A DNA stretch of 64,000 bases from Alphaproteobacteria bacterium (GCA_965248835.1 CBDFLJ010000001.1:1416820-1480819); one strand, 5' to 3'; positions 925-60,126 are shown, counted from the first letter of the stretch. A program made the numbers and translations. The notes: generated by a model from the letters alone, not told the origin.

Positions 925-2082
925 ATGGACAATGGCGCGGACAGACCGCAAGAGCCGGAGGAAGCGACGCCGGTGGCCGCCGCCCGGACATCATTCGACG
1001 CAGCCGAAGTCGGCGCCCGCCTGCGCGAAGCGCGGCTTGCCCTTGGGTACGACGTGGTCGACGTCGCGAGCGAGCTGCGCATCCGCCGCATCTATCTGCA
1101 AGCCATCGAGGAAGGCCGGCTGAGCGATCTGCCCGGGTCCGCCTATGTGACCGGTTTCCTGCGTGTCTATGGCGACTATCTGGGGCTCGACGGCCGCGAG
1201 ATCATCGAATCGTACAAGGCGGCGGGCCGGCCCAGCACCGGCGAGACGGATCTGTCCCTGCCCTCGCCGGTCGAGGAAGGCCGGCTCCCCACCCGTCCGA
1301 TCCTGCTGCTCGCCGCGTTGCTCGCCGTGGGGGCTTATGGCGTCTGGTACTACATGGCCAAAAGCGACCGCGACCCGGTCGAGAGTGTCGCGGCCCTGCC
1401 CGACCAGCTTATCGCACTGATCGAGGAGCCCACGGCCGCGGCGCCGCCGGAGACGGCCGAGGCGGACCGGGCCGCTCCAGAGCCGCCGGCCAACGACACG
1501 GCGACCGCGCCGACCAGTCAGCCGGTCGAAGATGTCCGGCCGCCGGCGCTCGAAGATCCTCCGGGCCAGGCCGAGGGCACTGTCACCGATCCCGTTGATG
1601 CCGACGCCGCCGCCGTTCCGGGGACGCCGACGCGCATGGAGACGGCCGCCGTTCAGCCGGAGACCGCCGCTGCGCCGCCGCCCATCCCTGTCGAGGCTGC
1701 CCCGGAGCCCGTCGAAACCGAAACGGCCGGCCGCTCGGCGACGGTCGCGCCCGAGGCCGACGGCGGGCTTTCGCCGCTCGGCGGCGGCGCCGCCGAGCAG
1801 GCCGAGACCCTGATCGCCGGCCGCATCGTTCTGCAGGCCAACACCGATATCTGGCTCGAAGTCGGGGCGGACGGTGCGGCGCCGGTCTATTCCGGCGTGC
1901 TGCGCCGGGGCGGCAGCTACCCTGTGCCCGCGCAGTCAGGGCTTACCCTGATGACCGGCGACGCCGGTGGCATCGACATCCTGGTCGACGGCCGGGCGAT
2001 CCCCAAGCTCGGGCCTCGGGGTGCGGTCAAGCGCGATGTGGTGCTCGATGCCGACCGCCTGCTGGGGCTGGCGAGTCAGTAA
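925..2082 (+). CDS. RodZ-like cytoskeleton protein (N-terminal XRE-type HTH, single TM, Pro/Ala-rich linker, C-terminal DUF4115-like domain)
   Basis: The HTH segment reads GARLREARLALGYDVVDVASELRIRRIYLQAIEEG. A TM helix (ILLLAALLAVGAYGVWYYM) is followed by a long acidic/Pro-rich spacer. The conserved C-terminal beta domain (IVLQANTDIWLEV...GDAGGIDILVDG) matches RodZ architecture. Confidence 0.7.
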   Translation: MDNGADRPQEPEEATPVAAARTSFDAAEVGARLREARLALGYDVVDVASELRIRRIYLQAIEEGRLSDLPGSAYVTGFLRVYGDYLGLDGREIIESYKAAGRPSTGETDLSLPSPVEEGRLPTRPILLLAALLAVGAYGVWYYMAKSDRDPVESVAALPDQLIALIEEPTAAAPPETAEADRAAPEPPANDTATAPTSQPVEDVRPPALEDPPGQAEGTVTDPVDADAAAVPGTPTRMETAAVQPETAAAPPPIPVEAAPEPVETETAGRSATVAPEADGGLSPLGGGAAEQAETLIAGRIVLQANTDIWLEVGADGAAPVYSGVLRRGGSYPVPAQSGLTLMTGDAGGIDILVDGRAIPKLGPRGAVKRDVVLDADRLLGLASQ

Positions 2083-30754: not shown

Positions 30755-33247
30755 ATGCTGGAGTCCGTAATCATCGCACTCGTCGTCGCGGTCGTCGTCA
30801 TCGCGATCGTCTATATCCTGTCGGTGTGGATCTACAAGCGCGCGCCGGCGAACATGGGCTTCGTGCGCACCGGGATGCTCGGCACCAAGGTGTGCCTGGG
30901 CCGCGGTGCGATCGTCCTGCCGGTCTTTCACGAGGTCACGTGGGTCTCGCTGGAGACGATCAAGCTGATCGTCAGCCGCGCGCGCGAGCAGGCCGTTCTG
31001 ACCTCCGACAAGATCCGGATCGACGTCGTGGCCGAGCTCTACGCCCATGTCGGCCGGACTCCCGAGGATCTGCTGACCGCGAGCCGGAGCCTGGGGGAAA
31101 AGACATTCGATCCCGACAAGGTCCGCAACCTCCTGGAGGCCAAGGTCGTCAGCGTGTTGAGGAGCTATGCCGCCACCAAGACGCTCAGCGAGCTGCACGA
31201 GAACCGCGAGGCCATCTCGCGCGAGATGAAGGCCGCGGTCATGGAGAGCTTCCAGGCCAACGGGCTGACGCTCGAGGAAGTCACGATCGCGGCCCTGGAA
31301 CAGACCGCGAAGGAGCATTTCAAGCCCGACAACGTCTTCGATGCCGAGGGCCTGAAAATCATCACCGACATCACCTCGGATGCCCGCCGCAAGGTCCACG
31401 AGACCGAAAAGCGGACCGCGGTCGCGATCCGCCAGCGCGACCTCGACACCCAGCTCGATCTCCTGGAGATCGAAAAGAACGAAGCGCTCGCCAAGGCGGG
31501 TCAGGACAAGACGATCTCCAACGAACAGGCCCAGCAGCTTCGCGAGAAGCAGATCTTCATCCTCGACCAACGCAAGGCGGTTGAGGAGCGCGAGATCGAG
31601 AACGACGTTACCCTGGAGCGCATGCGGACCGACCGCGAGGTCGCGATCACCGAGGAGGCGCAAAAGCGCGAGGTGACCGAGATCCAAAAGGAGCTTGCGC
31701 TGGAGCAGGAACGCAAGGACCGCGAGATCCAGCTCATCAACAAGGAACGCGAGCGCGAGGCGGCCGAGATCCAGCAGCGCACCGCCGTGCTGGCCGAACA
31801 GGAGGTCGCCCGCGTGCTGCGCCACCAGGCGAGCGAGGACGCCACCGTCGCCACCCGCAAGCAGAGCGTCGAGGCGCGGCTGACCGTCCTCGATCTCGAA
31901 AAGCAGGAGGAGCTCGCCGCGGCCGGGCAGGAGCGCGACGTCGCCAACGAGAAGGCCCGCGCGCTCAGCGAGCGCCAGCGCTACATCCTGGAACAGCGCT
32001 GGGAGGTCCAGCAGGACGAGATCGACAAGGCCCTGGCACTCGACCGCGCGCAGATCCAGAAAGACGCGGCGGTGGCCGAAGAGAGCAAGATCCTGGAGGC
32101 CGCCGAGGTCCGCCGCGCGCTCGCGCTCGAGCTTGAGGAACGCGACCGCGAGATCGCCCTGATCAGGAAGGAGCAGGAACGCGAGAAGATCGACATCCAG
32201 CGGTTCCTGGGACGCGAGAGGGAGGAGCGCGACCGCGAGATCGCCCTTGTCCGCAAGACCGGAGAGCTCGAGGCGGTCGAGGTCGAGCGGCTGAAAACGA
32301 CCGCAGAGAAGGAAAACGCCGAGCACGGCGTGGAGTCGGTGCGCATCCTCGCCGATGCCGAGCGGGACAAGGCGATCGAGCGCATCGAGGCCGAGAAGCT
32401 TGCCGAGGTCCGTCGGATCGACGAGGAGAACAAGGCGCAGATCTCGCGTATGCACATGATCACCCAGGCCGAGGCCCGGCAGACCTCGGCCGAGCGCGAG
32501 GCCGAGGCCACGCTGATCAAGGCGCGCGCCAACAGCGATGCGCAGAAGGTCGCGGCCGAGGGCATCGAGAAGGAGGCCGCGGCCCCGGGCCGCGCCGAGA
32601 TGGCGGTCGAATCGCTGCGGGTGGAGAACACCCAGCGCATGCTCGAAGCCGAAGCGACCGGCATCGAGGCCAAGGCCGATGCGCTCAAGAAGTACAACGA
32701 GGCTGCGACCTTCCTGGAGCTGGCCAAGATGTATATCGAGGCCGAGCGCGATGTTCATATCGACCAGGCCAAGGCGATGGGCACCGCGCTCGGTGGCGCG
32801 CAGATCCGCATGTACGGCGGCGGCGACGGCACGGTGGAGACGATCCGCGGCATGTTCACCTCCGGCTTCGGCCTGGGCGAGGCGCTTGAGGGGCTTGGCC
32901 AGTCGATGCCCGAGGGGCTGCGCGAGCGGCTGTCCGCGCAGGGCCTCCGCGGCCTCCTCGGCCTGGCGCCGGGCGAGGCAAAGCCCGATGTCGAACGGAC
33001 GCTGCAAAAGACCGTCCAACGGCTCGATGCACTGGCCGCCAAGTCGCTGCGCGGCCAGAAGGCGCGCGCGATGCCGCTGTCCGAAGCGCTCGCCAAGCTC
33101 GAACAGCAGGCCAGCGGCGACGACGAAGCGATTCGGGCCGTCAACACGCTCAAGGGCATGAACCCCGAAGGCGCCTTCGATGACCTGCCTTTCGACAAGG
33201 TGTGGGCGCTGCTTCAGAGCGTGGCGCAGGCGCCCAGCCAGGCTTGA
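30755..33247 (+). CDS. flotillin/SPFH (band-7) domain protein, YqiK-like, with an extended E/A/R-rich coiled coil (830 aa)
   Basis: The N-terminal TM (MLESVIIALVVAVVVIAIVYIL) is followed by an SPFH domain and ~500 aa of heptad-rich charged repeats. These include an internal duplication (ERDREIALIRKEQ / ERDREIALVRKTG). Confidence 0.8.
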   Translation: MLESVIIALVVAVVVIAIVYILSVWIYKRAPANMGFVRTGMLGTKVCLGRGAIVLPVFHEVTWVSLETIKLIVSRAREQAVLTSDKIRIDVVAELYAHVGRTPEDLLTASRSLGEKTFDPDKVRNLLEAKVVSVLRSYAATKTLSELHENREAISREMKAAVMESFQANGLTLEEVTIAALEQTAKEHFKPDNVFDAEGLKIITDITSDARRKVHETEKRTAVAIRQRDLDTQLDLLEIEKNEALAKAGQDKTISNEQAQQLREKQIFILDQRKAVEEREIENDVTLERMRTDREVAITEEAQKREVTEIQKELALEQERKDREIQLINKEREREAAEIQQRTAVLAEQEVARVLRHQASEDATVATRKQSVEARLTVLDLEKQEELAAAGQERDVANEKARALSERQRYILEQRWEVQQDEIDKALALDRAQIQKDAAVAEESKILEAAEVRRALALELEERDREIALIRKEQEREKIDIQRFLGREREERDREIALVRKTGELEAVEVERLKTTAEKENAEHGVESVRILADAERDKAIERIEAEKLAEVRRIDEENKAQISRMHMITQAEARQTSAEREAEATLIKARANSDAQKVAAEGIEKEAAAPGRAEMAVESLRVENTQRMLEAEATGIEAKADALKKYNEAATFLELAKMYIEAERDVHIDQAKAMGTALGGAQIRMYGGGDGTVETIRGMFTSGFGLGEALEGLGQSMPEGLRERLSAQGLRGLLGLAPGEAKPDVERTLQKTVQRLDALAAKSLRGQKARAMPLSEALAKLEQQASGDDEAIRAVNTLKGMNPEGAFDDLPFDKVWALLQSVAQAPSQA

Positions 33248-47653: not shown

Positions 47654-48220
47654 CTACAGCTCCGGCGAAGCGGTCCGGTCTTCGTCCGGCACGGGCGCCT
47701 CGATGTAGCCCGCCTTGTCGAGCGCATTCTGCAGGTCGTGGCGGGTGCACAGGCCAAGCGTGACCGGCTCGCGAGGCTTGATGTTGGCCATGTTCCAATG
47801 GGTGCGGTCGCGGATCGCCAGAATGGTCGGCTTGGTCGTGCCGATCAGCCGTGAGATCTGTCCGTCGCTCAGCCGCGGATAGTTGCGCACCAGCCAGGCG
47901 ATCGCGTCCGGCTTGTCCTGGCGCCGGGCGACCGGCGTGTAGCGCGGCCCCTTGGTGCGCGGCGCGGGCGGCGGGATGTTCTGCACCGCCATGTTCAGCC
48001 GCCCCGCTGGGTCGGCCGCACACCGGTCGATCTCCTCGCGGGTAAGCTGGCCGTTGGCGATCGGGTCGAACCCGACGATCCCGATCGCGACCTCCTCATC
48101 GGCGATGCTCTGGACCTCGAGCTCGTGGAGGTCGCAGAAGTCCGCGATCTGCTCGAAGGTCAAGACGGTATTTTCGATCAGCCACACCGCGGTGGCTTTG
48201 GGCATCAGTGGTCTGGCCAT
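47654..48220 (-). CDS. DUF1013 family protein (alphaproteobacterial conserved)
   Basis: The internal ATG gives MARPLMPKATAVWLIENTVLTFEQIADFCDLHELEVQ, the canonical DUF1013 N-terminus. Confidence 0.7.
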   Translation of the reverse strand: MARPLMPKATAVWLIENTVLTFEQIADFCDLHELEVQSIADEEVAIGIVGFDPIANGQLTREEIDRCAADPAGRLNMAVQNIPPPAPRTKGPRYTPVARRQDKPDAIAWLVRNYPRLSDGQISRLIGTTKPTILAIRDRTHWNMANIKPREPVTLGLCTRHDLQNALDKAGYIEAPVPDEDRTASPEL

Positions 48221-48251
48221 CAACTCTCCCCCAACCACGCCAGGCCGGCGT

Positions 48252-49834: not shown

Positions 49835-49950
49835 CGACCCGTCTCCGCTGCGGCCGGGCGTATATAGGCGACCGGCACGGCGCTGGCAAGCCTGGGCGAT
49901 ACACCTCGCGCGCCCGATGCTGTATGGATTGCACCGATCTGGGAGGTGCG

Positions 49951-51765
49951 ATGGGCCGGAGCCATCGAATCGATTGGGCGGATAGGCCGCGCGGCGCGAC
50001 CGGCGCGTTGCGCGGGATTCTGCCCTATTTGGCAGCCTACAGGCTGCGCATCGCGGGCGCGGCCTGCGCGCTGACCGTCGCCGCGGCAACGGTGCTGGTG
50101 CTGGGCCAGGGGTTGCGGGCGCTTGTCGATGACGGTTTCGGCGGCGGTGACGCCGCCCTGCTCGACCGAGCCCTGGTCGGGCTGTTCGCGATCATTGCGC
50201 TGCTGGCGGGTGCGACCTATGGGCGGTTCTACCTGGTCTCCTGGGTCGGCGAGAAGGTGGTCGCCGACATCCGGCGCGACGTCTACCGCCGCGTGCTCGC
50301 GCTCAGCCCCGCGTTCTTCGAGGTCACCAAGGTGGGCGAGATCCTGTCCCGGCTGACCACCGATACCGCCACTGTGCAGGTCGTCGTCGGCTCTTCGATC
50401 TCGATCGCACTGCGCAACGTGCTGCTGTTCGCCGGCGGCACCGTGATGCTGGTCGTCACCAGCCCGCGGCTGGCCGGGCTGGTGGTGCTGATCGTCCCCG
50501 TGGTGGTGGTCCCGATCGTCTTTTTCGGGCGCCGCGTGCGCCGGCTGTCACGGACGAGCCAGGACCGCATCGCCGACCTCTCGGCCCATGGCGAGGAGAC
50601 GTTGAACGCCATCCGCACCGTCCAGGCCTTCGGCCACGAGCCGGTCGACCGGCGCCGCTTCCAGGATCGGGTCGACGCGGCGCTTGCCGCGGCGCTTCGC
50701 CGCATCGCGGTGCGCGGCGCCCTGACCGCGTTCGTCGTGCTGACAGTGTTCAGCGCGATCGGGGTGATTCTGTGGATCGGCGGGCATGACGTGATGGCGG
50801 GCCGGCTGTCGGCCGGTGAGCTGTCGGCCTTCGTGTTCTATTCCGTCGTCGTCGCCGGGTCGGTCGGCGCGGTCAGCGAGGTTATCGGCGACATCCAGCG
50901 CGCGGCCGGCGCGACGGAGCGGCTGCTGGAACTGATCCGCGTCGAACCCGAGATTTCCGCCAAGCCCGACCCCGTAGCGCTGCCCGAGCCCGCCTCGGGG
51001 ACCATTGCGTTCGAGGCGGTGAGATTCAGCTATCCGGCGCGCCTCGACCTGCCGGCGCTCGCCGACATCGATCTTTCGGTCGCCGCGGGCGAACGGGTTG
51101 CCCTGGTCGGGCCGTCGGGCGCCGGCAAGTCGACCGTCTTTCAGCTCTTGCTTCGGTTCTACGACCCGCAGTCGGGATCGATCCGGATCGACGGGGTGGA
51201 CTTGCGTGATGCCGATCCGGGTCAAATCCGCGAGCGCATCGGTCTGGTCCCGCAGGACCCGTTCATCTTCTCCGCCGATGCCTGGGAGAATATCGGCTAC
51301 GGCCGGCCCGGGGCGAGCAAGGCGGATGTCCGCGCGGCCGCCGAGGCTGCGGCCGCGGCGGAGTTCCTCGATGCCCTGCCCGACGGGTTCGCGACGTTTC
51401 TGGGCGAGAAGGGCGTCCGGCTGTCCGGCGGGCAGCGCCAGCGCATCGCGATCGCGCGCGCGGTGCTGCGCGATCCCGCGATCCTGCTGCTGGATGAGGC
51501 GACCAGCGCGCTGGACTCCGAAAGCGAGCGGCTGGTCCAGCAAGCGCTGCGCCGGCTGATGGCCGGTCGCACCTCGGTGGTGATCGCCCACCGGCTGTCG
51601 ACCGTACAGGAGGCCGACCGGATCATCGTGCTCGACGGCGGGCGCATCCTGGCGACCGGCAGCCACGCAACCCTGATCGCGGAGGGCGGCCTCTATGCCC
51701 GGCTCGCCGCATTGCAGTTCGGCGGCCTCGGGGCGCCCGAGCCGTCCCGGCTCAGCGCTGTGTGA
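49951..51765 (+). CDS. ABC exporter, fused permease/ATPase (MsbA/ATM1-like)
   Basis: Six N-terminal TM helices are followed by Walker A (GPSGAGKST), signature ([14 protein letters not shown]) and Walker B ([12 protein letters not shown]). Translation is from the internal ATG. Confidence 0.85.
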
Positions 51766-53197
51766 GCTTGAACTCGATTCGGCGGTTGAGCCGGAAGGCC
51801 CGGACGGTGTTGCTCCGGTCCAACGGCTGAAACTCGCCGAACCCGGTCGCGGCCAGCCGGTTGGGCGGCAGGCCGAGTTCGATGAGCAACTTCACGACCG
51901 AGACCGCGCGCGCGGTCGACAGCTCCCAGTTCGATGGAAAGCTCGGAGTCGAGATCGGCAACCGGTCGGTATGCCCGTCCACGCGCAGCACCCAGTTGAG
52001 GTCTTTGGGGATGCGCCCGGACAGTTCGATCAGCGTCCGGGCGAGCTGGCTGATCTGGCTGCGCCCCGATTGCTGCAGCGTCGCGGTTCCCGAGGGGAAC
52101 AGGACCTCGGACTGGAAGACGAACCGGTCGCCCACGATGGTGATGTCCCGGCGGTTGCCGAGCGTCTGGCGCAGCCGGCCGAAGAACTCCGAGCGGAAGC
52201 TGGCGAGCTCCTGGACCTTTCTGGCCAACGCCGCGTTGAGGCGCTTCGACAGATTGACGATCTGAACGTTCTGCTGCTTCGACTCGGCCTCGGAGGCTTC
52301 GAGTGCCGCGGCGATAAGGGTGAGTTGCTGGCGCAGGGCCGCGATCTGGAGATTGAGCAGACGCACCTCGTCGCGCGCCTTCTCGGACAGGGCCTGTTCT
52401 TCGACCAGCGCGGTTTCGGTCTCGCCGGCGCGCCCGAGCAGCGCCGCCAGCCGGATGTCCTTCTCTTCGATGGTCTTCTGGGCGAGCAAGGTGCGTTCGC
52501 GTTCGGAGGCGAGCTCGGCAGCGAGCGCCTTCGATCGGTCGCGCAGCGCGCCCACCTCCTCGGCTCGGTCCTGAAGGCTTGCCGCCTGCGCGGCGACCTT
52601 CTGCTCCAGCGCCTTGCGCACCGCGCTCAGCGCCTCGATGTCGCGCTCCAGGCTGGCGATCCGGCGAAGCTGGAGCTCGATCCTGTCCTTGTCCGCGGCG
52701 ATCGTCTTGTAGGCGTCCTCGAGCTCCCTGGCGGTGGCGGCCGACGTCCTGCTGGCCTCTTCGACGGCCAGCTTGAGCGCGTCGCGCTCGGCCTCGCGCT
52801 TGGCCAGAAGGCTGGAGAACGTCTCCACCTCCTTGGCCCGCTCGCTCAGCATCGCCTGCAGCATGTCCCGTTCGGGCATCAGCTCGGCGAGCTGGCTCGA
52901 CAGCCGGTCGCGCTCGGCGGTCGTGGTCTCGAGCCGGATCGAAACCTGGGACAGCTTGTCCCTCAGATCGGTGTTTGTGGTCTGCTCGATCGACAGCATC
53001 TCGGCGAGCTGGTTGACTTGGCGGTTGAGCCGTTCGAGCGCCGCATCCCGCCCGCTCAGGATCTCGTTCAGCAAAAACTGTGCGATCGTGAAGACCATCA
53101 GGAGGAAGATGACGATGATCAGCAGCGCCGAGAGCGCGTCCACGAAGCCCGGCCAGATATCCGAACCGGCGCGTTGTCTTCGGCTGGCGGCAGGCAT
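51752..53197 (-). CDS. MotB/TolR-like stator-unit protein: N-terminal TM with conserved Asp, ~330-aa coiled coil, C-terminal OmpA/MotB peptidoglycan-binding domain
   Basis: The TM region is DIWPGFVDALSALLIIVIFLLMVF. A long heptad-rich E/A/R/L-rich region follows. The C-terminus is OmpA-like ([29 protein letters not shown]). Confidence 0.75.
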   Translation of the reverse strand: MPAASRRQRAGSDIWPGFVDALSALLIIVIFLLMVFTIAQFLLNEILSGRDAALERLNRQVNQLAEMLSIEQTTNTDLRDKLSQVSIRLETTTAERDRLSSQLAELMPERDMLQAMLSERAKEVETFSSLLAKREAERDALKLAVEEASRTSAATARELEDAYKTIAADKDRIELQLRRIASLERDIEALSAVRKALEQKVAAQAASLQDRAEEVGALRDRSKALAAELASERERTLLAQKTIEEKDIRLAALLGRAGETETALVEEQALSEKARDEVRLLNLQIAALRQQLTLIAAALEASEAESKQQNVQIVNLSKRLNAALARKVQELASFRSEFFGRLRQTLGNRRDITIVGDRFVFQSEVLFPSGTATLQQSGRSQISQLARTLIELSGRIPKDLNWVLRVDGHTDRLPISTPSFPSNWELSTARAVSVVKLLIELGLPPNRLAATGFGEFQPLDRSNTVRAFRLNRRIEFKLTQR

Positions 53198-53213
53198 CCG
53201 GGCTCGCCCCGAC

Positions 53214-54353
53214 CTAGCGGACCGATTTCTCGGCGATCGCGGCCAGGGTTCGCGACAGCACCCGGATCTCCGTGCGCAGCTCCTGGACCATCTCGGTCCG
53301 GCCGGTCGCGAGCTCTTCGTGCAGCCGGGTCATGTGCACGTCGATGTTGCGCACATGGGCGCGCAGGTTGTCGTCGTTCAGCCCGCCGCCCAGGACGCTA
53401 TCGGCAAGGCGCGACAGGACCGGCTTGAGCTCGACCTGGCTCTCGACGAGCTTCCTCATCAGCCCCTGCTCGGCGCGCATCTGGTCGGTCAGCGTCGACA
53501 GATTTTCCGACAACACGGTGATGCTGTTGTTAGCCGAGATCCGGCTTTCCTCGCCGCGGTCGAGCGTCCGCTGGAGATGCTCGAGGCTGTCGGCGGTCTG
53601 TTCGAGCAGCGCCTGGACATAGGCTGGCACGGACTGGTCGCCGTCGCTGGCCAGCGCACTGCTGGCGAGCTTGGTCTGGCCGGCCAGCCAATCCTCCAGA
53701 TCGTTGTAGAACCGGTTCTGCGCCTGGCCGGCCTGGAGCTCCAGGAAGCCCAGCACCAGAGAACCGGCGAGGCCGAACAGCGAGGAGCTGAAGGCGGTGC
53801 CCATGCCGACCAGCGGCTCGCGCAGGCCCCGCTTGAGATCGGTGAGCACCGAGCTCAGCTCGCCGCCGCCGACGGTGAGCCCCGAGATCACCGAGCCGAC
53901 CGACGTGATGGTCTGCAAAAGCCCCCAGAAGGTCCCCAGGAGGCCGAGGAATATCAGCAGCCCGATCATGTAGCGCAAGATGTCGCGCTGCTCGTCGAGG
54001 CGGGCCGAGATGCCGTCCAGCAGCGAGCGCAAGGCAAGCGCGGACAGGCTGAAGCGATGGTTTCGCTCGCCCAGCATCGTCGCCATCGGCGCCAGCAGGC
54101 GCGGGGCTGCCTGGACCGAGATCCCCGGCCGCCCGGTGCGGAAGTTCTCGATCCAGTTGACCTCGCGGCCCAGCATGAGGACCTGGCGGAACCCGTAGGC
54201 GATCCCCAACACCAGCACGCCGATGATCAGGCCGTTGAGCGCCGGGTTGGCGAAGAAAGCCCGCGCGAGGTCGTCGAACAGGACGGCAACGATCACCGCG
54301 ACCGCGATGACGAACAGCAGCATGCGGGTCAGGTAGTGTCTGGGGCTGGTCAT
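53214..54353 (-). CDS. MotA/TolQ/ExbB-family proton-channel protein with ~170-aa C-terminal soluble extension
   Basis: The internal ATG gives MTSPRHYLTRMLLFVIAVAVIV. There are four TM helices. TM3-TM4 carry channel-family motifs (LLIFLGLLGTFWGLL and PLVGMGTAFSSSLFGLAGSLVLGFL). The stop lies 16 nt before the MotB-like start. Confidence 0.7.
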   Translation of the reverse strand: MTSPRHYLTRMLLFVIAVAVIVAVLFDDLARAFFANPALNGLIIGVLVLGIAYGFRQVLMLGREVNWIENFRTGRPGISVQAAPRLLAPMATMLGERNHRFSLSALALRSLLDGISARLDEQRDILRYMIGLLIFLGLLGTFWGLLQTITSVGSVISGLTVGGGELSSVLTDLKRGLREPLVGMGTAFSSSLFGLAGSLVLGFLELQAGQAQNRFYNDLEDWLAGQTKLASSALASDGDQSVPAYVQALLEQTADSLEHLQRTLDRGEESRISANNSITVLSENLSTLTDQMRAEQGLMRKLVESQVELKPVLSRLADSVLGGGLNDDNLRAHVRNIDVHMTRLHEELATGRTEMVQELRTEIRVLSRTLAAIAEKSVR

Positions 54354-54438
54354 CGCGTCGTCGTCATTCCGGGGGCAGCCAAGTCTTGGTGGCGCAAGCT
54401 CCGCGCGGCCTTGCGCGCGCAGCAACGGGGTCGGTCGC

Positions 54439-55281
54439 TCAGCGTCTGGTCACTACAACGTCCACGCGGTCCGGCGGCCCGTCCTGGTAGCGACTGCCCA
54501 GGGCCCGGATATCGATCCGCGTGCTCCGCACACCCTTGTCGATCAGATAGGAGCGGACCGACAGCGCCCGCGTGAGGGACAGGCGACGCGATTCGCGGGC
54601 AGTGCTATCGCGCCCGCCGGCATAGGCCAGGAGCTGCAGCCGGAGGCGCCCGTCGGACTTGAGGCCGTCGACGACGCGGTCGAGAGTCCGGCCCGCCCGC
54701 GTGTCGAGCTTGGAGGTGTCCGAGGCGAACCCCAGCCGGTAATGGCTGCCCGCCCCGAAGATCCTGGAGTCTTCATGGCCGCGCTTTGGCGCCGGCGGCA
54801 CGGCGGCGGTGCGCATTGGCGCGGCCCTCGGCGCGCGCGCGTCCTGTTCGGGAGCCTCCCTTTTCCGGGCCGTGGCAGTCCCGAGGTCCGGGGGGGCGAC
54901 CGCCGTTCGGAGCGGGGGCGCCGCCGATGCGATTGCCGCCCGCGGCGGCGGCTCCAACGGTGGCGGTGATCCGTAGATGGTCGGTTTGGGCTTGGGTTGC
55001 GGCACGGCCGCGGCGCGGTCCGCGGGCGGCGCGGGCTTGCGCTTCGGCACCGGCGGCCCGGCCCGAGGCATGCTGCCGATAGGCGGCTTGACGCGCGGCG
55101 GCCGGATGGACGACGACCGGGTCGGGGCGTGCGGCGCCTGAGGGCGGACAGTGGTGCGGACATCGACCGGCGGCGCCGCGGCGACAGCCAGTGCCGCCCA
55201 CCACACCGTACCAGCCAACAGCCCGGCAGTTGCGGCCGACCGCATACCCAGGCTCCTACCCAGGCTCAAACGCAATGCCAT
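54439..55281 (-). CDS. secreted/anchored protein with ~150-aa Pro/Ala/Lys-rich spacer and degenerate C-terminal OmpA/Pal-like domain
   Basis: A signal/anchor (MALRLSLGRSLGMRSAATAGLLAGTVWWAALAVAAA) is followed by TonB/TolA-like PxP repeats (KPAPP, PQPKPKPT, PPPLEPPP). The C-terminus (LDTRAGRTLDRVVDGLKSDGRLRLQLLAYAGG...LSLTRALSVRSYLIDKGV..RIDIRALG) matches the OmpA_C pattern but lacks GHTD. Confidence 0.6.
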   Translation of the reverse strand: MALRLSLGRSLGMRSAATAGLLAGTVWWAALAVAAAPPVDVRTTVRPQAPHAPTRSSSIRPPRVKPPIGSMPRAGPPVPKRKPAPPADRAAAVPQPKPKPTIYGSPPPLEPPPRAAIASAAPPLRTAVAPPDLGTATARKREAPEQDARAPRAAPMRTAAVPPAPKRGHEDSRIFGAGSHYRLGFASDTSKLDTRAGRTLDRVVDGLKSDGRLRLQLLAYAGGRDSTARESRRLSLTRALSVRSYLIDKGVRSTRIDIRALGSRYQDGPPDRVDVVVTRR

Positions 55282-55416: not shown

Positions 55417-56232
55417 TCAGGCGGTTGGCGCGACTTCCGCGGACGCCAGCCCGGCGCGCAGCATCCGCAGGACCGGGGCGTGCAAGGGCTCGTTCGCGGC
55501 GACGATAGAGCCGCCATAGACCATTTTGTCCGCGCCGTCGATGTCGGTCGCAAACCCGCCCGCCTCGCGCACCAGGACGATTCCGGCGGCGACGTCCCAC
55601 GGCGACAGCCCGAACTCCCAGAACCCGTCATACCGGCCGGCGGCGACATAGGCGAGGTCGAGCGCCGCCGCGCCGAAGCGGCGGACCCCGGCAGTGCGCC
55701 CGAGCGTGATGTCGACGGTCGCAAGGAACGCATCCTTGCCCGGGGGGGCGCGGGAGGAAATGCCGGTGGCCAGCACCGCGTCCGCCAGATCGCGCCGGGA
55801 GGAGACGCGCAGACGGCGGCGGTTGAGATAGCAGCCCACCCCCTTTTCCGCCCAGAACATCTCGTCGCGCAACGGCTCGTAGACCACCCCGGCGGTCATT
55901 TCGCCGGCCTCCTCCAAAGCGATCGAGATCGCGAAGTGGGGGATCCCGTGCAGGAAGTTGGTCGTCCCGTCCAGCGGGTCGACGATCCAGCGCCGGTCCG
56001 GATCCTCACCCACGCGCGCGCCGGTCTCTTCCATCAGAAAGCCGAAGCCTGGCCGCGCCTTGTGCAGCTCGGCGTGCAGCATGCGCTCGGCCCGCCGGTC
56101 GGCTTCGGAGACGTAATCGGCCGGGCCCTTGCGCGAGACCTGCAGGTTCTCGACCTCACCGAAGTCGCGGATCAAACCCCGCGCGGCCTTGCGCGCGGCG
56201 GCCTCCATGACGTTGATTGTCGCAGACGGCAT
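55417..56232 (-). CDS. suhB: inositol monophosphatase family protein (SuhB-like)
   Basis: The Mg-site motifs FLMEETG, WIVDPLDGTTNF and a WDVAAG-type region are present. Confidence 0.8.
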   Translation of the reverse strand: MPSATINVMEAAARKAARGLIRDFGEVENLQVSRKGPADYVSEADRRAERMLHAELHKARPGFGFLMEETGARVGEDPDRRWIVDPLDGTTNFLHGIPHFAISIALEEAGEMTAGVVYEPLRDEMFWAEKGVGCYLNRRRLRVSSRRDLADAVLATGISSRAPPGKDAFLATVDITLGRTAGVRRFGAAALDLAYVAAGRYDGFWEFGLSPWDVAAGIVLVREAGGFATDIDGADKMVYGGSIVAANEPLHAPVLRMLRAGLASAEVAPTA

Positions 56233-56273
56233 TCAGAGAAGTCCGAAACGCCGGGCGCGCACCGCCCGGCGGC

Positions 56274-56840
56274 TCAATCCTTGGCGCGCTCGACGTAGGT
56301 GCCTTCGCCGGTATTGACCACAATCCGCGTGCCGGTCTCGATATGGGGCGGCACCATCACCCGCTCGCCGTTCTCCAGGATCGCGGGCTTGTAGGACGAG
56401 GACGCGGTCTGACCCTTGACCACGGGCTCGGCCTCGACAACCTCCATCACCACTTGGGCCGGAAGCCGGACGCTCACCGGGCTGCCCTCGATCAGATCGA
56501 TGGTCAGCGCCATACCGTCCTGAAGATAGGGTGCCGCGCTGCCCAGCATGTCGGCCGCGACGTCGAGCTGGTCATAGGTGTCAGCGTCCATCAAGGTCAC
56601 GGTATCCCCGTCGCGGTAGAGATAGGTGCAGGTCTTCTCGTCGACCATCAGCTTCTCGACCGATTCCTGGGTCCGGAACCGCTCGTTCGACTTGATGCCG
56701 GTCTTGACGTCGCGCATCTCGACCTGGACGAAGGCGCTGCCCTTGCCCGGCTGCAGGATCTGGATCTTGAGCACGCTCCACTGCTTACCGTCATGTTCGA
56801 TCACATGACCCGGACGGATCGTGTTCGCGTTTACCTTCAT
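56274..56840 (-). CDS. efp: elongation factor P
   Basis: The 188-aa C-terminal part of ORF 56274..58736 starts MKVNANTIRPGHVIEHDGKQW and contains the conserved KPGKGSAF loop with the modifiable Lys. The remainder of that ORF is antisense to the Rieske gene. Confidence 0.95.
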   Translation of the reverse strand: MKVNANTIRPGHVIEHDGKQWSVLKIQILQPGKGSAFVQVEMRDVKTGIKSNERFRTQESVEKLMVDEKTCTYLYRDGDTVTLMDADTYDQLDVAADMLGSAAPYLQDGMALTIDLIEGSPVSVRLPAQVVMEVVEAEPVVKGQTASSSYKPAILENGERVMVPPHIETGTRIVVNTGEGTYVERAKD

Positions 56841-56936
56841 TGCTGGTGCCGTGGTGCTCAGGATGGGCGGTCTCGCGGAACCTAGCGATTTTGCGACCGC
56901 TGCGCAACGCGACGAGCCGGCCCCGGATCCGTTAAG

Positions 56937-58019
56937 ATGACCGCCTGTTCCTCGTCGGGATGGAGACCGGTGCCGGGCAATTTCATCAGGAACGACTGGT
57001 ACGTCGCGGCCTTGTCCGCGGAGGTCGGCGACCGGCCGATCGGGTTCACCGTGCTGGGCGAGCCGATCGTGCTGTTTCGCGACAGCGCCGGTGCCGTCGT
57101 CGCGCTCGAGGACCGCTGCGTGCACCGCCAGGCGCCCCTGTCGCTGGGCAGCGTGGTCGGCGACCGGCTGCAATGCGGCTATCACGGCTTCACCTACGAC
57201 CGCACCGGATCGTGCGTGCTGGTCCCGAGCCAGGACCGCGTCCCGCCGGGTGCGGCGGTGCGCGCCTATCCGGTCCGCGAGCGTCAGGGCATGATCTTCG
57301 TGTGGACCGGCGACCCGGCGTTGAGCGCGCAGCGTGCGCCCTATGACTTCCCCTATGCCGAGGGCGCGGGCTGGTCGCTCCATTTCGAACGGCTCTACGG
57401 CCGGTTCGACTACCGGCTGCTGATCGACAACCTCCTGGACCTGACCCATCTCAGCTTCGCGCACAAGACCACCATCGGCTCGGCGGGGCTTGCCCGAGAC
57501 GACGACACCAGGACCGAGCGGGACGGCGACAAGGTCCGCGTGAGCCGATGGATGCCCGATATCGAGCAGGCGCCGGCGCATGTCGAGATCACCGGCCATC
57601 CCGGCCGGATCGACCGCTGGCAGGTCATCGAGTTCACGCCGCCCTGCTATATCTGGCTGCAGGTCGGCACCGCCAAGGCCGGGCGCGGCGGGCGCGGGGC
57701 GGCGCCCGAGGATACGCTGCTCGACCGCCATGCGCTGCACGTCATGACCCCGGAGACCGAGGCCAGCACCCACTACCTCTGGGTGATGGCCAACAAGGCT
57801 GGAACATTGTCGGCCGATCAGGAGCGCATTCTGCACGACCGCTCGATCCAGGCCTTCAACGAGGACATTGCGATCCTCGAGGGCCAGCAGAGCCGGCTCG
57901 ACCCTGAGCGGGTCACCGTCGATGTCGGCGCCGATGCCGGCCAGATCGCCGGCCGCCGGCTGCTCGAAAAGCTGATCGCCGAGGACGCCGGCCGATCCGG
58001 CCTGGCTGGAACAGGCTAG
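56937..58019 (+). CDS. Rieske [2Fe-2S] non-heme-iron oxygenase alpha subunit, VanA/phthalate-family (demethylase/monooxygenase type)
   Basis: The Rieske motif is CVHRQAPLSLGSV...CGYHGF. The mononuclear Fe region (HLSFAHK) and ~360-aa length match VanA-like single-component oxygenases. The start is uncertain (ATG 56937 or a downstream GTG). Confidence 0.75.
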   Translation: MTACSSSGWRPVPGNFIRNDWYVAALSAEVGDRPIGFTVLGEPIVLFRDSAGAVVALEDRCVHRQAPLSLGSVVGDRLQCGYHGFTYDRTGSCVLVPSQDRVPPGAAVRAYPVRERQGMIFVWTGDPALSAQRAPYDFPYAEGAGWSLHFERLYGRFDYRLLIDNLLDLTHLSFAHKTTIGSAGLARDDDTRTERDGDKVRVSRWMPDIEQAPAHVEITGHPGRIDRWQVIEFTPPCYIWLQVGTAKAGRGGRGAAPEDTLLDRHALHVMTPETEASTHYLWVMANKAGTLSADQERILHDRSIQAFNEDIAILEGQQSRLDPERVTVDVGADAGQIAGRRLLEKLIAEDAGRSGLAGTG

Positions 58020-59032
58020 GCGTGCGGATCGGGGTGGCGGGCGCCGCGCCAATCGGTGATCTCGCTTCCTTGGCGGTAGACCGGGCCGACCGGGACCTTG
58101 CCGTGACCGCCGGGGATGTCGAGCACGTAGGTCGGCATGCACAGCCCGGACAGCCTGCCCCGCAGCGCCCGCATGATCGCCTGGCCTGTCTCGACCGGGA
58201 CCCTGAAGCGGGCGGTCCCGGGCGCAAGATCGGGATGGTGCAGGTAATAGGGCCTCACCCTGTGGCGCACCAGCTTGCGGAACAGCGCCTCCAGGACCGC
58301 CGCGTCGTCGTTGACGCCACGCAGCAGGACGGTCTGGGACAGGAGCGGTAACCCGGCGTCGTGCAGCCGGGCGATCGCCGCGCAGGCCGTCGGATCGAGC
58401 TCCTCGGCGTGGTTGCAGTGAATCGCCATATAGACCGGCTTGCCGCACGCCAACGCCGCGATGCGCGCCGTCGAGATCAGCCGCGGCTCGGCCACCGGCA
58501 CCCGGGTGTGGATGCGCACCACCTCGACATGGCCGATCGCATCGATCCGGTCGAGGACGGCGCGCAGCCGCCGCGGCGCGAGCGCCAGGGGATCGCCGCC
58601 GCTCAGGATCACCTCGCGGATCGTCGGGTGTGCGGCGATGTAACCGACCGCCGCATCGAGCGCCGCCGGACCCAGCACGCCGCCGCCTGGTCCGACCACC
58701 TCGCGCCGGAAGCAGAACCGGCAATAGACCGGACACACGGTGGAGGGCATCAGCAGCACCCGGTCGGGATAGCGGTGGACGATGCCCGGCAGCGGGGAAT
58801 GGGCCGAATCGCCGATGGGGTCTTCGCGCTCCGCCGGATCGCGCACCAGCTCGGCCGGGTCGGGCAGATATTGCAGCGCGATCGGGTCGTCCTTGCGCCC
58901 GGGCGCGATCAGCCCCGCCACATGGGGTGTGACCGCCAGCGCGTACCGGGCCGCGACCGCCTCGGCATCGGCGACTGCTTCGGCCGGGATCAGCCCCGCC
59001 TCGTGCAGCGCGCGGCCGGTCGTCAGTGCCAT
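58016..59032 (-). CDS. epmB: EF-P beta-lysylation protein EpmB (lysine 2,3-aminomutase-like radical SAM)
   Basis: The CxxxCxxC radical-SAM motif (CPVYCRFCFRRE) and a KamA-family C-terminal region are present. Confidence 0.8.
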   Translation of the reverse strand: MALTTGRALHEAGLIPAEAVADAEAVAARYALAVTPHVAGLIAPGRKDDPIALQYLPDPAELVRDPAEREDPIGDSAHSPLPGIVHRYPDRVLLMPSTVCPVYCRFCFRREVVGPGGGVLGPAALDAAVGYIAAHPTIREVILSGGDPLALAPRRLRAVLDRIDAIGHVEVVRIHTRVPVAEPRLISTARIAALACGKPVYMAIHCNHAEELDPTACAAIARLHDAGLPLLSQTVLLRGVNDDAAVLEALFRKLVRHRVRPYYLHHPDLAPGTARFRVPVETGQAIMRALRGRLSGLCMPTYVLDIPGGHGKVPVGPVYRQGSEITDWRGARHPDPHA

Positions 59033-59091
59033 CCTACCCCTCCGTGTGCGGATCGGGCATTATCGCGCCATGCTCGGCCGGGGGAAGAGTC

Positions 59092-60126
59092 ATGGTTGAG
59101 CCGCGCTGGTGGGACAAGGCCCGATACGCCGCCAGGCGGCCCAACCTGATCGTGCGCGCCCGCGTGATCGCCGCGGTCCGCCGCTTCTTCGCAGAGGCCG
59201 GGTTCGTCGAGGTCGAGACCCCGGCGCTCCAGGTCTCGCCGGGGCTGGAACCGCATCTGGACGCTTTCGAAACCGTGCTGCGCGAGCCGTTCCACGACGG
59301 CAGGGAGCGGCTGCTCCATCTGCACACCTCGCCCGAGTTCGCGATGAAGAAGCTGTTGGCCGCGGGCGAGCAGCGCCTGTTCCAGATCGCGCGGTGCTAC
59401 CGCAACCAGGAGCGCTCGGCGACGCACCACCCCGAATTCACCATGCTGGAATGGTACCGCGCCGGTGCCAGCTACCGCCACCTGATGACCGACTGCGAAC
59501 GGCTGCTGGCGGCCTGCACCACCGGACTGCGAAGCGGCGACCGGACGGCGAACCCGGCCGCCCCGTGGACCCGTATCACCGTCACCGAGGCGTTCGAACG
59601 CCATGCCGGGATCGACCCGATGGCGCTGATGGACGACGATGTCGAGCCCACCCCCGGTCCGCTGATCGAGGCGGCGCGGGCCATCGGGGTCTGGGCCAAC
59701 GACCGCGACCGCTGGGAGGATGCGTTCTTCCGCATCTTCCTCGCCGTCGTCGAGCCCGCGCTCGGCATCGGCGCACCGGCAATCCTCTATGACTGGCCGG
59801 CGCCGATGGCCGCGTTGTCACGGCTCCATGCGGGCGGCAGGCTGGCCGAGCGGTTCGAGGTCTTCGCCTGCGGTCTGGAGCTCGCCAACGGATACACCGA
59901 GCTGACCGATCCGGTCGAGCAGCGCGCCCGGTTCGAGCGTGACCGAGTCAAGCGCGCGGCGCATTTCGGCGCTGCCTACCCGATCGACGAGGACTTCATG
60001 GCAGCGCTCGAATCGGGTCTTCCCGATTGCGCCGGCATTGCGCTGGGCATCGACCGCCTGGTGATGCTGGCGACCGGAGCGGGCCACATCGAGGATGTGC
60101 TCTGGGCGCCGGTCACGCCGGGCTAA
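59092..60126 (+). CDS. epmA: EF-P-lysine lysyltransferase EpmA (GenX/PoxA, truncated LysRS paralog)
   Basis: The internal ATG gives MVEPRWWDKARYAARRPNLIVRARVIAAVRRFF. Class II aaRS motifs (FQIARCYRNQE, GIALGIDRLVML) are present. Confidence 0.8.
   Translation: MVEPRWWDKARYAARRPNLIVRARVIAAVRRFFAEAGFVEVETPALQVSPGLEPHLDAFETVLREPFHDGRERLLHLHTSPEFAMKKLLAAGEQRLFQIARCYRNQERSATHHPEFTMLEWYRAGASYRHLMTDCERLLAACTTGLRSGDRTANPAAPWTRITVTEAFERHAGIDPMALMDDDVEPTPGPLIEAARAIGVWANDRDRWEDAFFRIFLAVVEPALGIGAPAILYDWPAPMAALSRLHAGGRLAERFEVFACGLELANGYTELTDPVEQRARFERDRVKRAAHFGAAYPIDEDFMAALESGLPDCAGIALGIDRLVMLATGAGHIEDVLWAPVTPG

Follow-up and report, generated by a model that had tools for sequence, protein, structure and literature searches.

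The locus and its three proteins

The window considered here, that is, the whole stretch of DNA that was analysed, comprises 64,000 nucleotides (nt) of one strand from an Alphaproteobacteria bacterium (GCA_965248835.1 CBDFLJ010000001.1:1416820-1480819), and our subject is a pair of adjoining genes in it that encode a MotA-like channel protein (the A subunit) and a MotB-like, wall-binding protein (the B subunit), together with a third gene for a Pro-rich OmpA-like protein (OmpA-Pro). Known 5:2 motors power flagella, gliding and type 9 secretion, Tol–Pal constriction, TonB-dependent uptake and Zorya phage defence. The three open reading frames (ORFs) lie on the minus strand in the same direction and span 51752-55281, and both their coordinates and their close spacing (16 nt between A and B; 85 nt between OmpA-Pro and A) agree with an earlier reading made from the sequence alone (hereafter, the sequence-only reading). 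The features, in window coordinates and with transmembrane (TM) helices numbered from the N terminus, are as follows.

51752-53197, minus strand: B subunit (MotB-like), 481 residues; an ORF that matches NF006543 and ZorB3 and is MotB/ZorB-like
51755-52159, minus strand: B residues 347-481, OmpA/MotB-type peptidoglycan-binding domain (PF00691)
52160-52291, minus strand: B residues 303-346, conserved helical segment before the OmpA fold (alignment, AlphaFold2)
52292-53068, minus strand: B residues 44-302, predicted single-register coiled coil (register scan, shuffle control)
53069-53161, minus strand: B residues 13-43, predicted TM helix with I-W-P-G-F-V-D20-A (hydropathy peak 3.0)
53214-54353, minus strand: A subunit (MotA-like), 379 residues; predicted MotA/ExbB/TolQ/ZorA fold with four TM helices
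53217-53717, minus strand: A residues 213-379, predicted cytoplasmic helical tail (helices 244-322 and 328-378; AlphaFold2)
53718-53981, minus strand: A residues 125-212, TM3 and TM4, the predicted channel-forming helices (alignment of 31 sequences)
54439-55281, minus strand: OmpA-Pro accessory protein, 280 residues (PF00691, E 1e-11; composition)

The start of A was placed at the ATG that agrees with the 379-residue database proteins. Database proteins 100% identical to A (379 residues) and to B (481 residues) exist, and the third-position G+C content (GC3) of the two genes, 0.90-0.91, is typical of coding sequence here. A scan for promoters and terminators returned nothing over the shuffled background. 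At its 3' end the B gene overlaps, by its last 14 nt (51752-51765), the 3' end of a convergent ATP-binding cassette (ABC) exporter gene (49924-51765).

Hydropathy and the AlphaFold2 model give the A subunit four TM segments and a helical C-terminal tail of ~168 residues, as the sequence-only reading had it, and a cytoplasmic loop of ~65 residues. The model (predicted local distance difference test (pLDDT) 83.7) has helices at residues 5-33, 37-73, 105-158, 166-234, 244-322 and 328-378, and by fold comparison the protein shows the characteristic helical fold of the MotA/ExbB/TolQ/ZorA superfamily, with MotA ranking below ExbB, TolQ and ZorA. Its last two TM helices carry the conserved polar and Gly/Pro residues of motor A subunits, in the motifs FLGLLGT141FWGL (TM3) and P180-L-x-G-M-G-T-A-F-S-S-S191-L-F-G-L (TM4), for which the window protein reads GLLGTFWGL and PLVGMGTAFSSSLFGL; across 31 sequences, down to 35% identity, G137, L138, G140-L145, T148, P180, G183, M184, F188, S191, G194 and L195 are invariant. 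ZorA profiles fit the A subunits better than the Pfam MotA_ExbB model does: every one of the 31 family members matches PADLOC ZorA1 and ZorA3 (best E-values 1e-15 to 5e-14), and 27 of 31 relatives match PF01618 at E ≤ 0.01 (best 1e-8). The ZorA1 match of the window protein (E 3e-15) runs from TM3 into the tail and covers profile positions 105-298 of 683 only. The tail has a heptad signal of its own (z = 5.6-5.9) and is nearly constant in length, most A subunits in the 80 loci described below having 378-384 residues. The A family comprises 2954 clusters (50% identity) at E ≤ 1e-3 and 611 at E ≤ 1e-30, with >8000 close relatives.

The B subunit combines a single N-terminal TM helix that contains an Asp with a C-terminal OmpA-like domain, the arrangement of MotB/ZorB-type proteins, and both parts are as the sequence-only reading had described them. 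Residues I14 to A21, including Asp20, are invariant in an alignment of 23 homologues. The C-terminal domain matches PF00691 with 56 bits (cut-off 27.2; E 5.5e-15) and carries GHTD, NWELSTARA (the predicted NWELSxARA) and NRRIEF, within which DGHTD, NWELSxxRA (R430-A431) and NRRIEFKLT are invariant among homologues; among solved structures, its sequence is nearest to the periplasmic domains of MotS, MotB and PomB. The preceding segment (residues 303-346), which contains the invariant motif RSEFFG.LR, aligns with the N-terminal periplasmic helices of MotB/MotD-type proteins, and the NCBIfam MotD match begins at residue 304. As a whole, the protein scores 440 bits on NCBIfam NF006543 (PRK09039.1-2, 'peptidoglycan-binding protein'), above the cut-off of 305, six B partners from distant loci score 346-461 bits on the same model, and PADLOC ZorB3 matches over the OmpA part (E 3e-19).

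Heptad steps in the B-subunit coil

Between the TM helix and the OmpA domain of B, the sequence-only reading had proposed a continuous helix of ~330 residues. The coiled coil is strong, and the figure is somewhat overstated because AlphaFold2 shows low-confidence breaks: some 260 residues share one register, and the helical part amounts to about 300. When residues 44-302 (259 residues) are read in one fixed register, Leu/Ile/Val/Met/Phe occupy 61% of the a and d positions and 11% of the others (z = 11.9 against 2000 shuffles), the sole strong periodicity is 3.50, and a register scan finds the heptad frame unchanged from about residue 36 to 300. The AlphaFold2 model (pLDDT 73) has an unbroken helix from residue 16 to 205, running from the TM segment into the periplasm, a low-confidence break at 206-218, and helices at 219-309 and 316-346 before the OmpA fold; on this model, the helix may have two hinges.

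The coil varies in length among relatives, and the variation is quantised. The 120 best homologues of B are 439-586 residues long, and the lengths of 100 of these equal 5 modulo 7 (439, 446, 453, 460, 467, 474, 481, 488 ... 530, 537, 586), with a further 15 forming a parallel series at 4 modulo 7. Insertions and deletions fall at two hot spots, near residues 115-155 and 205-212, which are filled with ERD-rich heptads, and residues 1-110 and 212-481 are conserved in the alignment. A tandem-repeat search of the window B gene found no DNA tandem repeats that could explain the seven-residue steps. Shorter proteins occur in Sinorhizobium meliloti (342 residues) and Komagataeibacter hansenii (321 residues), with coils of ~100-120 residues; for K. 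hansenii, the lengths of A (348 residues) and B (321 residues) imply a coil of about 100 residues. The overall range is thus about 100-365 residues, or ~15 to ~54 nm when fully extended at 0.15 nm per residue.

These sequence comparisons show a coil that is free in length and that preserves its heptad phase from the TM helix to the wall anchor. The gap between inner membrane and wall is of the order of 10 nm. Given that most B coils are much longer than this, the coil is not a simple perpendicular ruler, and it probably runs obliquely, parallel to the wall, or folded. Given also that the TM helix enters the coil without a flexible linker and that only whole heptads are gained or lost, the angle between channel and anchor seems to matter, and the coil looks less like a passive rope than like an element that bears torque or signals register.

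Relatives, neighbourhood and inheritance

A scan of species-representative genomes yielded 546 relatives, of which the best 80 were analysed as loci; these are Rhodospirillales-type alphaproteobacteria (Defluviicoccus, Azospirillum, Caenispirillum, Roseomonas, Telmatospirillum and many metagenome-assembled genomes). The order that recurs across them is suhB-(OmpA-Pro)-A-B-<ABC, with the convergent ABC gene in at least 33 of the 80, and across Alphaproteobacteria it is efp-suhB-(OmpA-Pro)-A-B-<ABC-rpmE; of 90 loci, 67 include efp and 55 include rpmE. A and B are separated by 2-24 nt in most loci. The same neighbourhood persists where A subunits are 37-50% identical to that of the window (L084/85, L087, L090), and the B partners at this distance still pass NF006543 (346-427 bits). 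In S. meliloti, orthologues 48% and 51% identical to the window proteins lie between suhB and the ABC exporter gene, with the order suhB-A-B-<ABC-rpmE kept and no tolA, tolB or pal near the pair; this organism has a separate, essential TolQRA-Pal system (PMC7327166), and the A-B pair is therefore not its Tol motor. The S. meliloti genes carry the locus tags LZK74_31000 and LZK74_30995. The Rgs polar-growth factors of S. meliloti, which were identified together with TolQR (PMC7327166), were considered and set aside, none being MotA- or OmpA-like.

A-subunit identity correlates with that of SuhB (r = 0.73) and that of the ABC protein (r = 0.87), all averaging ~64%, as a vertically inherited core gene would. 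A phage collection contained no relatives of the pair, and the only five 'plasmid' matches are all chromosome-sized replicons of 3.5-4.6 Mb. With the efp/suhB/rpmE synteny, these results place the pair among core genes and not in a defence island. One of the replicons labelled as plasmids, the 3.72 Mb CP090106.1 (L091; 'pSymB' in PLSDB), carries rpmE, an rpmJ-like ykgO, purE, purK, suhB and other core genes, and looks like a mislabelled S. meliloti chromosome. Flagellar genes adjoin the pair in 2 of 90 loci, both of one lineage (L082/L083, 3303-10171), where the pair (B of 342 residues) lies ~900 nt from a divergent fliK-flgD-flgE group with a DUF456 gene in between. Three AT-rich metagenomic contigs encode a full-length A subunit with tail, 36-38% identical to that of the window, without an adjoining MotB-like gene (L081 6333-7460, L086 780-1913, L089 6052-7158); in L081, the gene after A encodes a soluble protein with a methyl-accepting chemotaxis protein (MCP) signal domain. 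One family member is attributed to the gammaproteobacterium Nitrococcus. The window copy is an ordinary member of the family.

In the window, the pair is flanked on one side by the convergent MsbA-type ABC exporter gene, rpmE and a zinc-type dehydrogenase gene, and on the other by suhB (inositol monophosphatase), efp, a Rieske oxygenase gene, and epmB-like and epmA-like genes. The latter group forms an elongation factor P (EF-P) modification cluster at 55417-60126 (suhB, efp, an epmB-like lysine 2,3-aminomutase gene and an epmA-like class II aminoacyl-tRNA synthetase paralogue), with the Rieske/VanA-type oxygenase gene inserted between efp and the epmB-like gene. A scan of 40 other coding-like ORFs of the window found no flagellar, tol, pal, tonB or exbD domain, in line with the gene content that the sequence-only reading had reported. 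Apart from the neighbours just named, the 30 coding-like ORFs scanned encode housekeeping or metabolic proteins (RodZ, HemA, RF1, PrmC, ClpB, PurK, PFK, Acs, TrcR and others). Two of the products are markers of alphaproteobacterial morphogenesis and cell-cycle control: a RodZ-like protein (HTH_25 and RodZ_C; 925-2082, plus strand) and a TrcR-family cell-cycle regulator (47654-48238, minus strand). An 830-residue protein (30755-33247, plus strand) has an N-terminal hydrophobic segment and, as its only Pfam match, SPFH/Band 7 at residues 38-181, which leaves ~650 residues unassigned; its gene lies in the part of the window from 30 to 36 kb, where the AT skew is unusually high (~0.19).

The OmpA-Pro protein had been read as a TonB/TolA-like component with an N-terminal signal or anchor, a Pro/Ala/Lys-rich spacer and a degenerate OmpA-like domain. 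The hydrophobic N-terminal segment and the degenerate domain stand; the spacer is rich in Pro (23%), Ala (18%) and Arg (12%) and not in Lys (~5%), and the TonB/TolA likeness is not upheld. In the domain (residues ~185-280, window 54442-54729; PF00691, E 1e-11), AYAGG...RRLSLTRA replaces GHTD...NxxLSxxRA, with the Asp of GHTD and the Asn changed, so that this degenerate domain may fail to bind peptidoglycan, and the pattern ARRLSLSRALAVRSYLIxxGxRSTRIDVRALG..DRVDV is conserved just upstream of the A gene in ~60 of the 80 loci. The homologues have cleavable signal peptides ending AxA|Q (two are lipoprotein-like), and anchoring of the TonB/TolA type was rejected on the grounds of these signal-peptidase sites and of the lack of a conserved membrane anchor. 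Shortly after the signal-peptidase site, 30 of 44 homologues (L012, L017, L027, L029, L031-L041 and others) share a mature N-terminal motif, V-x-V-D-L-S-V-L-D/E-x-L-G-x-P-P-N-V-P, that could serve as a docking peptide; the window protein has only a degenerate form of it (PPVDVRTTV). No PADLOC profile matched the OmpA-Pro protein. Its gene is missing at this position in ~15 of the 80 loci, including the Defluviicoccus-like L001-L004, L006-L008, L011 and L013, which have the highest A-subunit identity among the 80, and it is likewise not at the S. meliloti locus. The conserved unit is therefore the A-B pair and not the trio that had been proposed, and OmpA-Pro is a frequent, non-obligatory accessory.

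The family has been recorded before. The curated PRK09039 models of NCBI name the B subunit ('peptidoglycan-binding protein') without a function, and automatic annotation gives A as 'flagellar motor protein MotA' and B as 'chemotaxis protein MotB', labels that are misleading for this family. Full-text literature searches found experimental work on it only in papers on Komagataeibacter; studies of 5:2-motor phylogeny and force transducers (PMC12505986, PMC12204202) do not mention it, nor do a Brucella envelope review and an alphaproteobacterial signature-protein paper. The proposal of an uncharacterised machine holds for the mechanism and not for the family as such, given that the B subunit passes NF006543 and that the family appears in the Komagataeibacter literature as 'MotAB'.

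The K. hansenii genes 'motA' (348 residues) and 'motB' (321 residues) come from a genus that lacks flagella and are described as its only motility-like genes (Jacek et al. 2019, PMC6570709). The cloning primer for the start of A translates to VTRPTTY (MTRPTTYL in a family member, MTSPRHYL in window A) and that for the end of B to EFRLTDR* (IEFKLTQR* in window B), and the reverse-transcription PCR (RT-PCR) primers give AITVVK and QPLDNG, for which the window has AVSVVK and QPLDRSN; given these matches, we take the K. hansenii proteins to belong to the same family as the window pair. On overexpression, cells were elongated or formed chains, colony spreading rose threefold and the cellulose was looser, and C-terminal green fluorescent protein (GFP) fusions were found at one or both poles (PMC6570709); disruption mutants were viable and made denser cellulose (PMC7347698). 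In these papers the genes are regarded as motility genes, and neither a mechanism nor a structure nor a partner is described. The output that the data suggest concerns cell length, division, polarity and surface behaviour.

Proposed motor and competing readings

On balance, we favour the view that the pair is an ion-driven, wall-anchored 5:2 motor with a housekeeping role that is non-flagellar, non-Tol, non-Ton and non-defence. It would belong to the ZorAB-like branch and probably be driven by protons, and it is vertically inherited in Alphaproteobacteria. Profiles and synteny agree with the sequence-only reading that the pair is not flagellar MotAB, TolQR, ExbBD or a complete Zorya system and that its mechanism and output are uncharacterised.

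The steps that can be envisioned follow the solved MotAB and ZorAB motors (bioRxiv 10.1101/2023.12.18.572097). Five A subunits would surround the TM helices of a B dimer, and ion passage between Asp20 of B and Thr141/Ser191 of A (TM3 and TM4, respectively) would turn A5 relative to B2. Outside the membrane, B2 would pass directly from its TM helices into a rigid, parallel, two-stranded coiled coil without any flexible linker, and its OmpA/MotB domains would fix it to peptidoglycan, making B2 the stator. With B2 so held, the moving part would be the A5 ring and its five tails of ~170 residues (that is, a short ZorA-like bundle), which may pass rotation or tension to a cytoplasmic or membrane partner encoded outside the cluster. 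The coil would keep the heptad phase from TM helix to anchor and act as an oblique or wall-parallel leash or torsion element, and the secreted OmpA-Pro protein would be an optional periplasmic accessory. Judged from the Komagataeibacter phenotypes, the motor most likely acts on the envelope or on cell shape and division.

More tentatively, and with slightly more doubt than confidence, we suggest that the family represents a fourth class of alphaproteobacterial 5:2 rotary motor beside Mot, Tol and Ton: a vertically inherited housekeeping motor, sister to ZorAB or resembling its ancestor, in which a B coil of variable length is phase-locked, the rotating A ring signals or works in the cytoplasm through a short pentameric tail, and the role is in the envelope, at the poles or in division and lies outside that of any characterised system.

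Several points weigh against the proposed motor. The A5B2 stoichiometry, ion flux and rotation are predicted for this family by analogy, a long compliant coil is an odd stator, and no tail partner is encoded near the pair. The window A subunit scores 21.3 bits on Pfam PF01618 (MotA_ExbB), under the gathering score of 22.9; Thr186 in TM4 is not invariant; and searches from A with a single sequence or a profile did not find the solved motors, returning only coiled-coil noise on the tail. The three distant A homologues without a MotB-like neighbour indicate that the pair is not universal. Finally, the assignment of the K. hansenii proteins to the family draws on short primer peptides and not on full sequences, and most of the Komagataeibacter data were obtained by overexpression from plasmids and with GFP fused to the C terminus.

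Some of these points would suit a static tether that links the inner membrane to peptidoglycan, or a scaffold in the periplasm, in which the channel is degenerate and non-conducting and the role is structural (for example, at the poles). A long coil of free length resembles a tether more than a drive shaft, the cluster encodes two OmpA-like domains, the Pfam channel model stays below threshold and the K. hansenii fusions are polar. We nevertheless regard this as unlikely, given that the Asp of B and the TM3/TM4 residues of A do not vary even at 35-40% identity, a pattern not easily accounted for unless function is coupled to ions, and that the A tail, needless for a pure anchor, has a near-constant length.

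Less probable still is a transducer of the Tol/Ton kind, in which the motor would supply energy to the Pro-rich OmpA-like protein or to a partner in the outer membrane. In TolQR-TolA-Pal and ExbBD-TonB, force reaches a membrane-anchored transducer, whereas here the Pro-rich protein is secreted and optional: it has a cleavable signal peptide and no conserved TM anchor with an SHLS-type motif, and it is missing from the ~15 loci and from S. meliloti. The B subunit is of the MotB/OmpA type and not of the TolR/ExbD fold, and neither the window scan nor the S. meliloti locus contains tolA, tolB, pal or tonB. Taken with the separate Tol-Pal system of S. meliloti and the rarity of flagellar neighbours (2 of 90 loci), this also bears on the question, raised by the sequence-only reading, of whether the pair is the sole tolQR or a flagellar motAB in close relatives, for which we find no indication.

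By profile, the nearest known relative is ZorAB (Escherichia coli, PDB 8QYD; Shewanella type I, 8VVN), whose profiles give the best matches of the pair (ZorA1/ZorA3 and ZorB3/ZorB1) and which likewise has a cytoplasmic coiled tail on A and a peptidoglycan-binding domain on B (bioRxiv 10.1101/2023.12.18.572097). The sequence-only reading had set the pair apart from Zorya, in which the long tail is on the A subunit; the pair is indeed not a complete Zorya system, yet the distance is smaller than supposed, given that all 31 A subunits match ZorA profiles and that the family A also has a short tail. This tail (~168 residues, constant in length) is about a third of the ~500 residues in E. coli ZorA (residues 223-729; bioRxiv 10.1101/2023.12.18.572097), the family A is predicted to have four TM helices, and the long coiled coil is periplasmic and on B, whereas ZorB has no such coil. 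An anti-phage sensor of the Zorya type, that is, a ZorAB pair with effectors encoded elsewhere, is accordingly a possibility to which we give very little credence: no effector gene (ZorC, ZorD or other accessory) adjoins the pair, whose annotated neighbours (suhB, efp, the ABC exporter gene and rpmE) are metabolic or translational; the NCBIfam antiphage model ZorA_4 gives A 13 bits against a cut-off of 500; and the family sits at a syntenic housekeeping site with vertical-looking divergence and without matches to phages or true mobile plasmids, not in patchy defence islands.

With the flagellar stators MotAB, PomAB and MotPS, the pair shares a four-TM A subunit, a B subunit with an N-terminal TM Asp and a C-terminal OmpA-like domain, and the helices just before the OmpA fold, which also align; it differs in the extra C-terminal tail of A and in the rigid coil of 100-365 residues that replaces the flexible plug and linker of B. 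That the pair is a flagellar stator paralogue (MotAB/MotCD-like) is highly improbable: although source annotations use Mot names, one lineage has the pair beside fliK-flgD-flgE and K. hansenii overexpressers spread faster on soft agar, the family occurs in non-flagellate Komagataeibacter, no flagellar genes lie near the window pair, B falls far below the equivalog cut-offs for MotD (109 against 283 bits), MotS (85 against 264) and MotB (69 against 301), no curated MotA equivalog model matched A, and in the fold comparison MotA comes after ExbB, TolQ and ZorA.

In summary, a family that was already catalogued by NCBI and touched experimentally under the name MotAB is here given a family-level picture, with a heptad-quantised coil, a link to Komagataeibacter and a deep efp/suhB/rpmE synteny as its new elements. 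The family is as conserved as the adjoining translation and metabolic genes and is present in model organisms such as S. meliloti and in Komagataeibacter, an industrial producer of cellulose. The heptad-quantised coil constitutes a natural experiment on the passage of torque or register through a periplasmic coiled coil. Knowing the function of the family would give an evolutionary context for the origin of the Zorya sensor, and would extend alphaproteobacterial cell biology by a core machine of the envelope.

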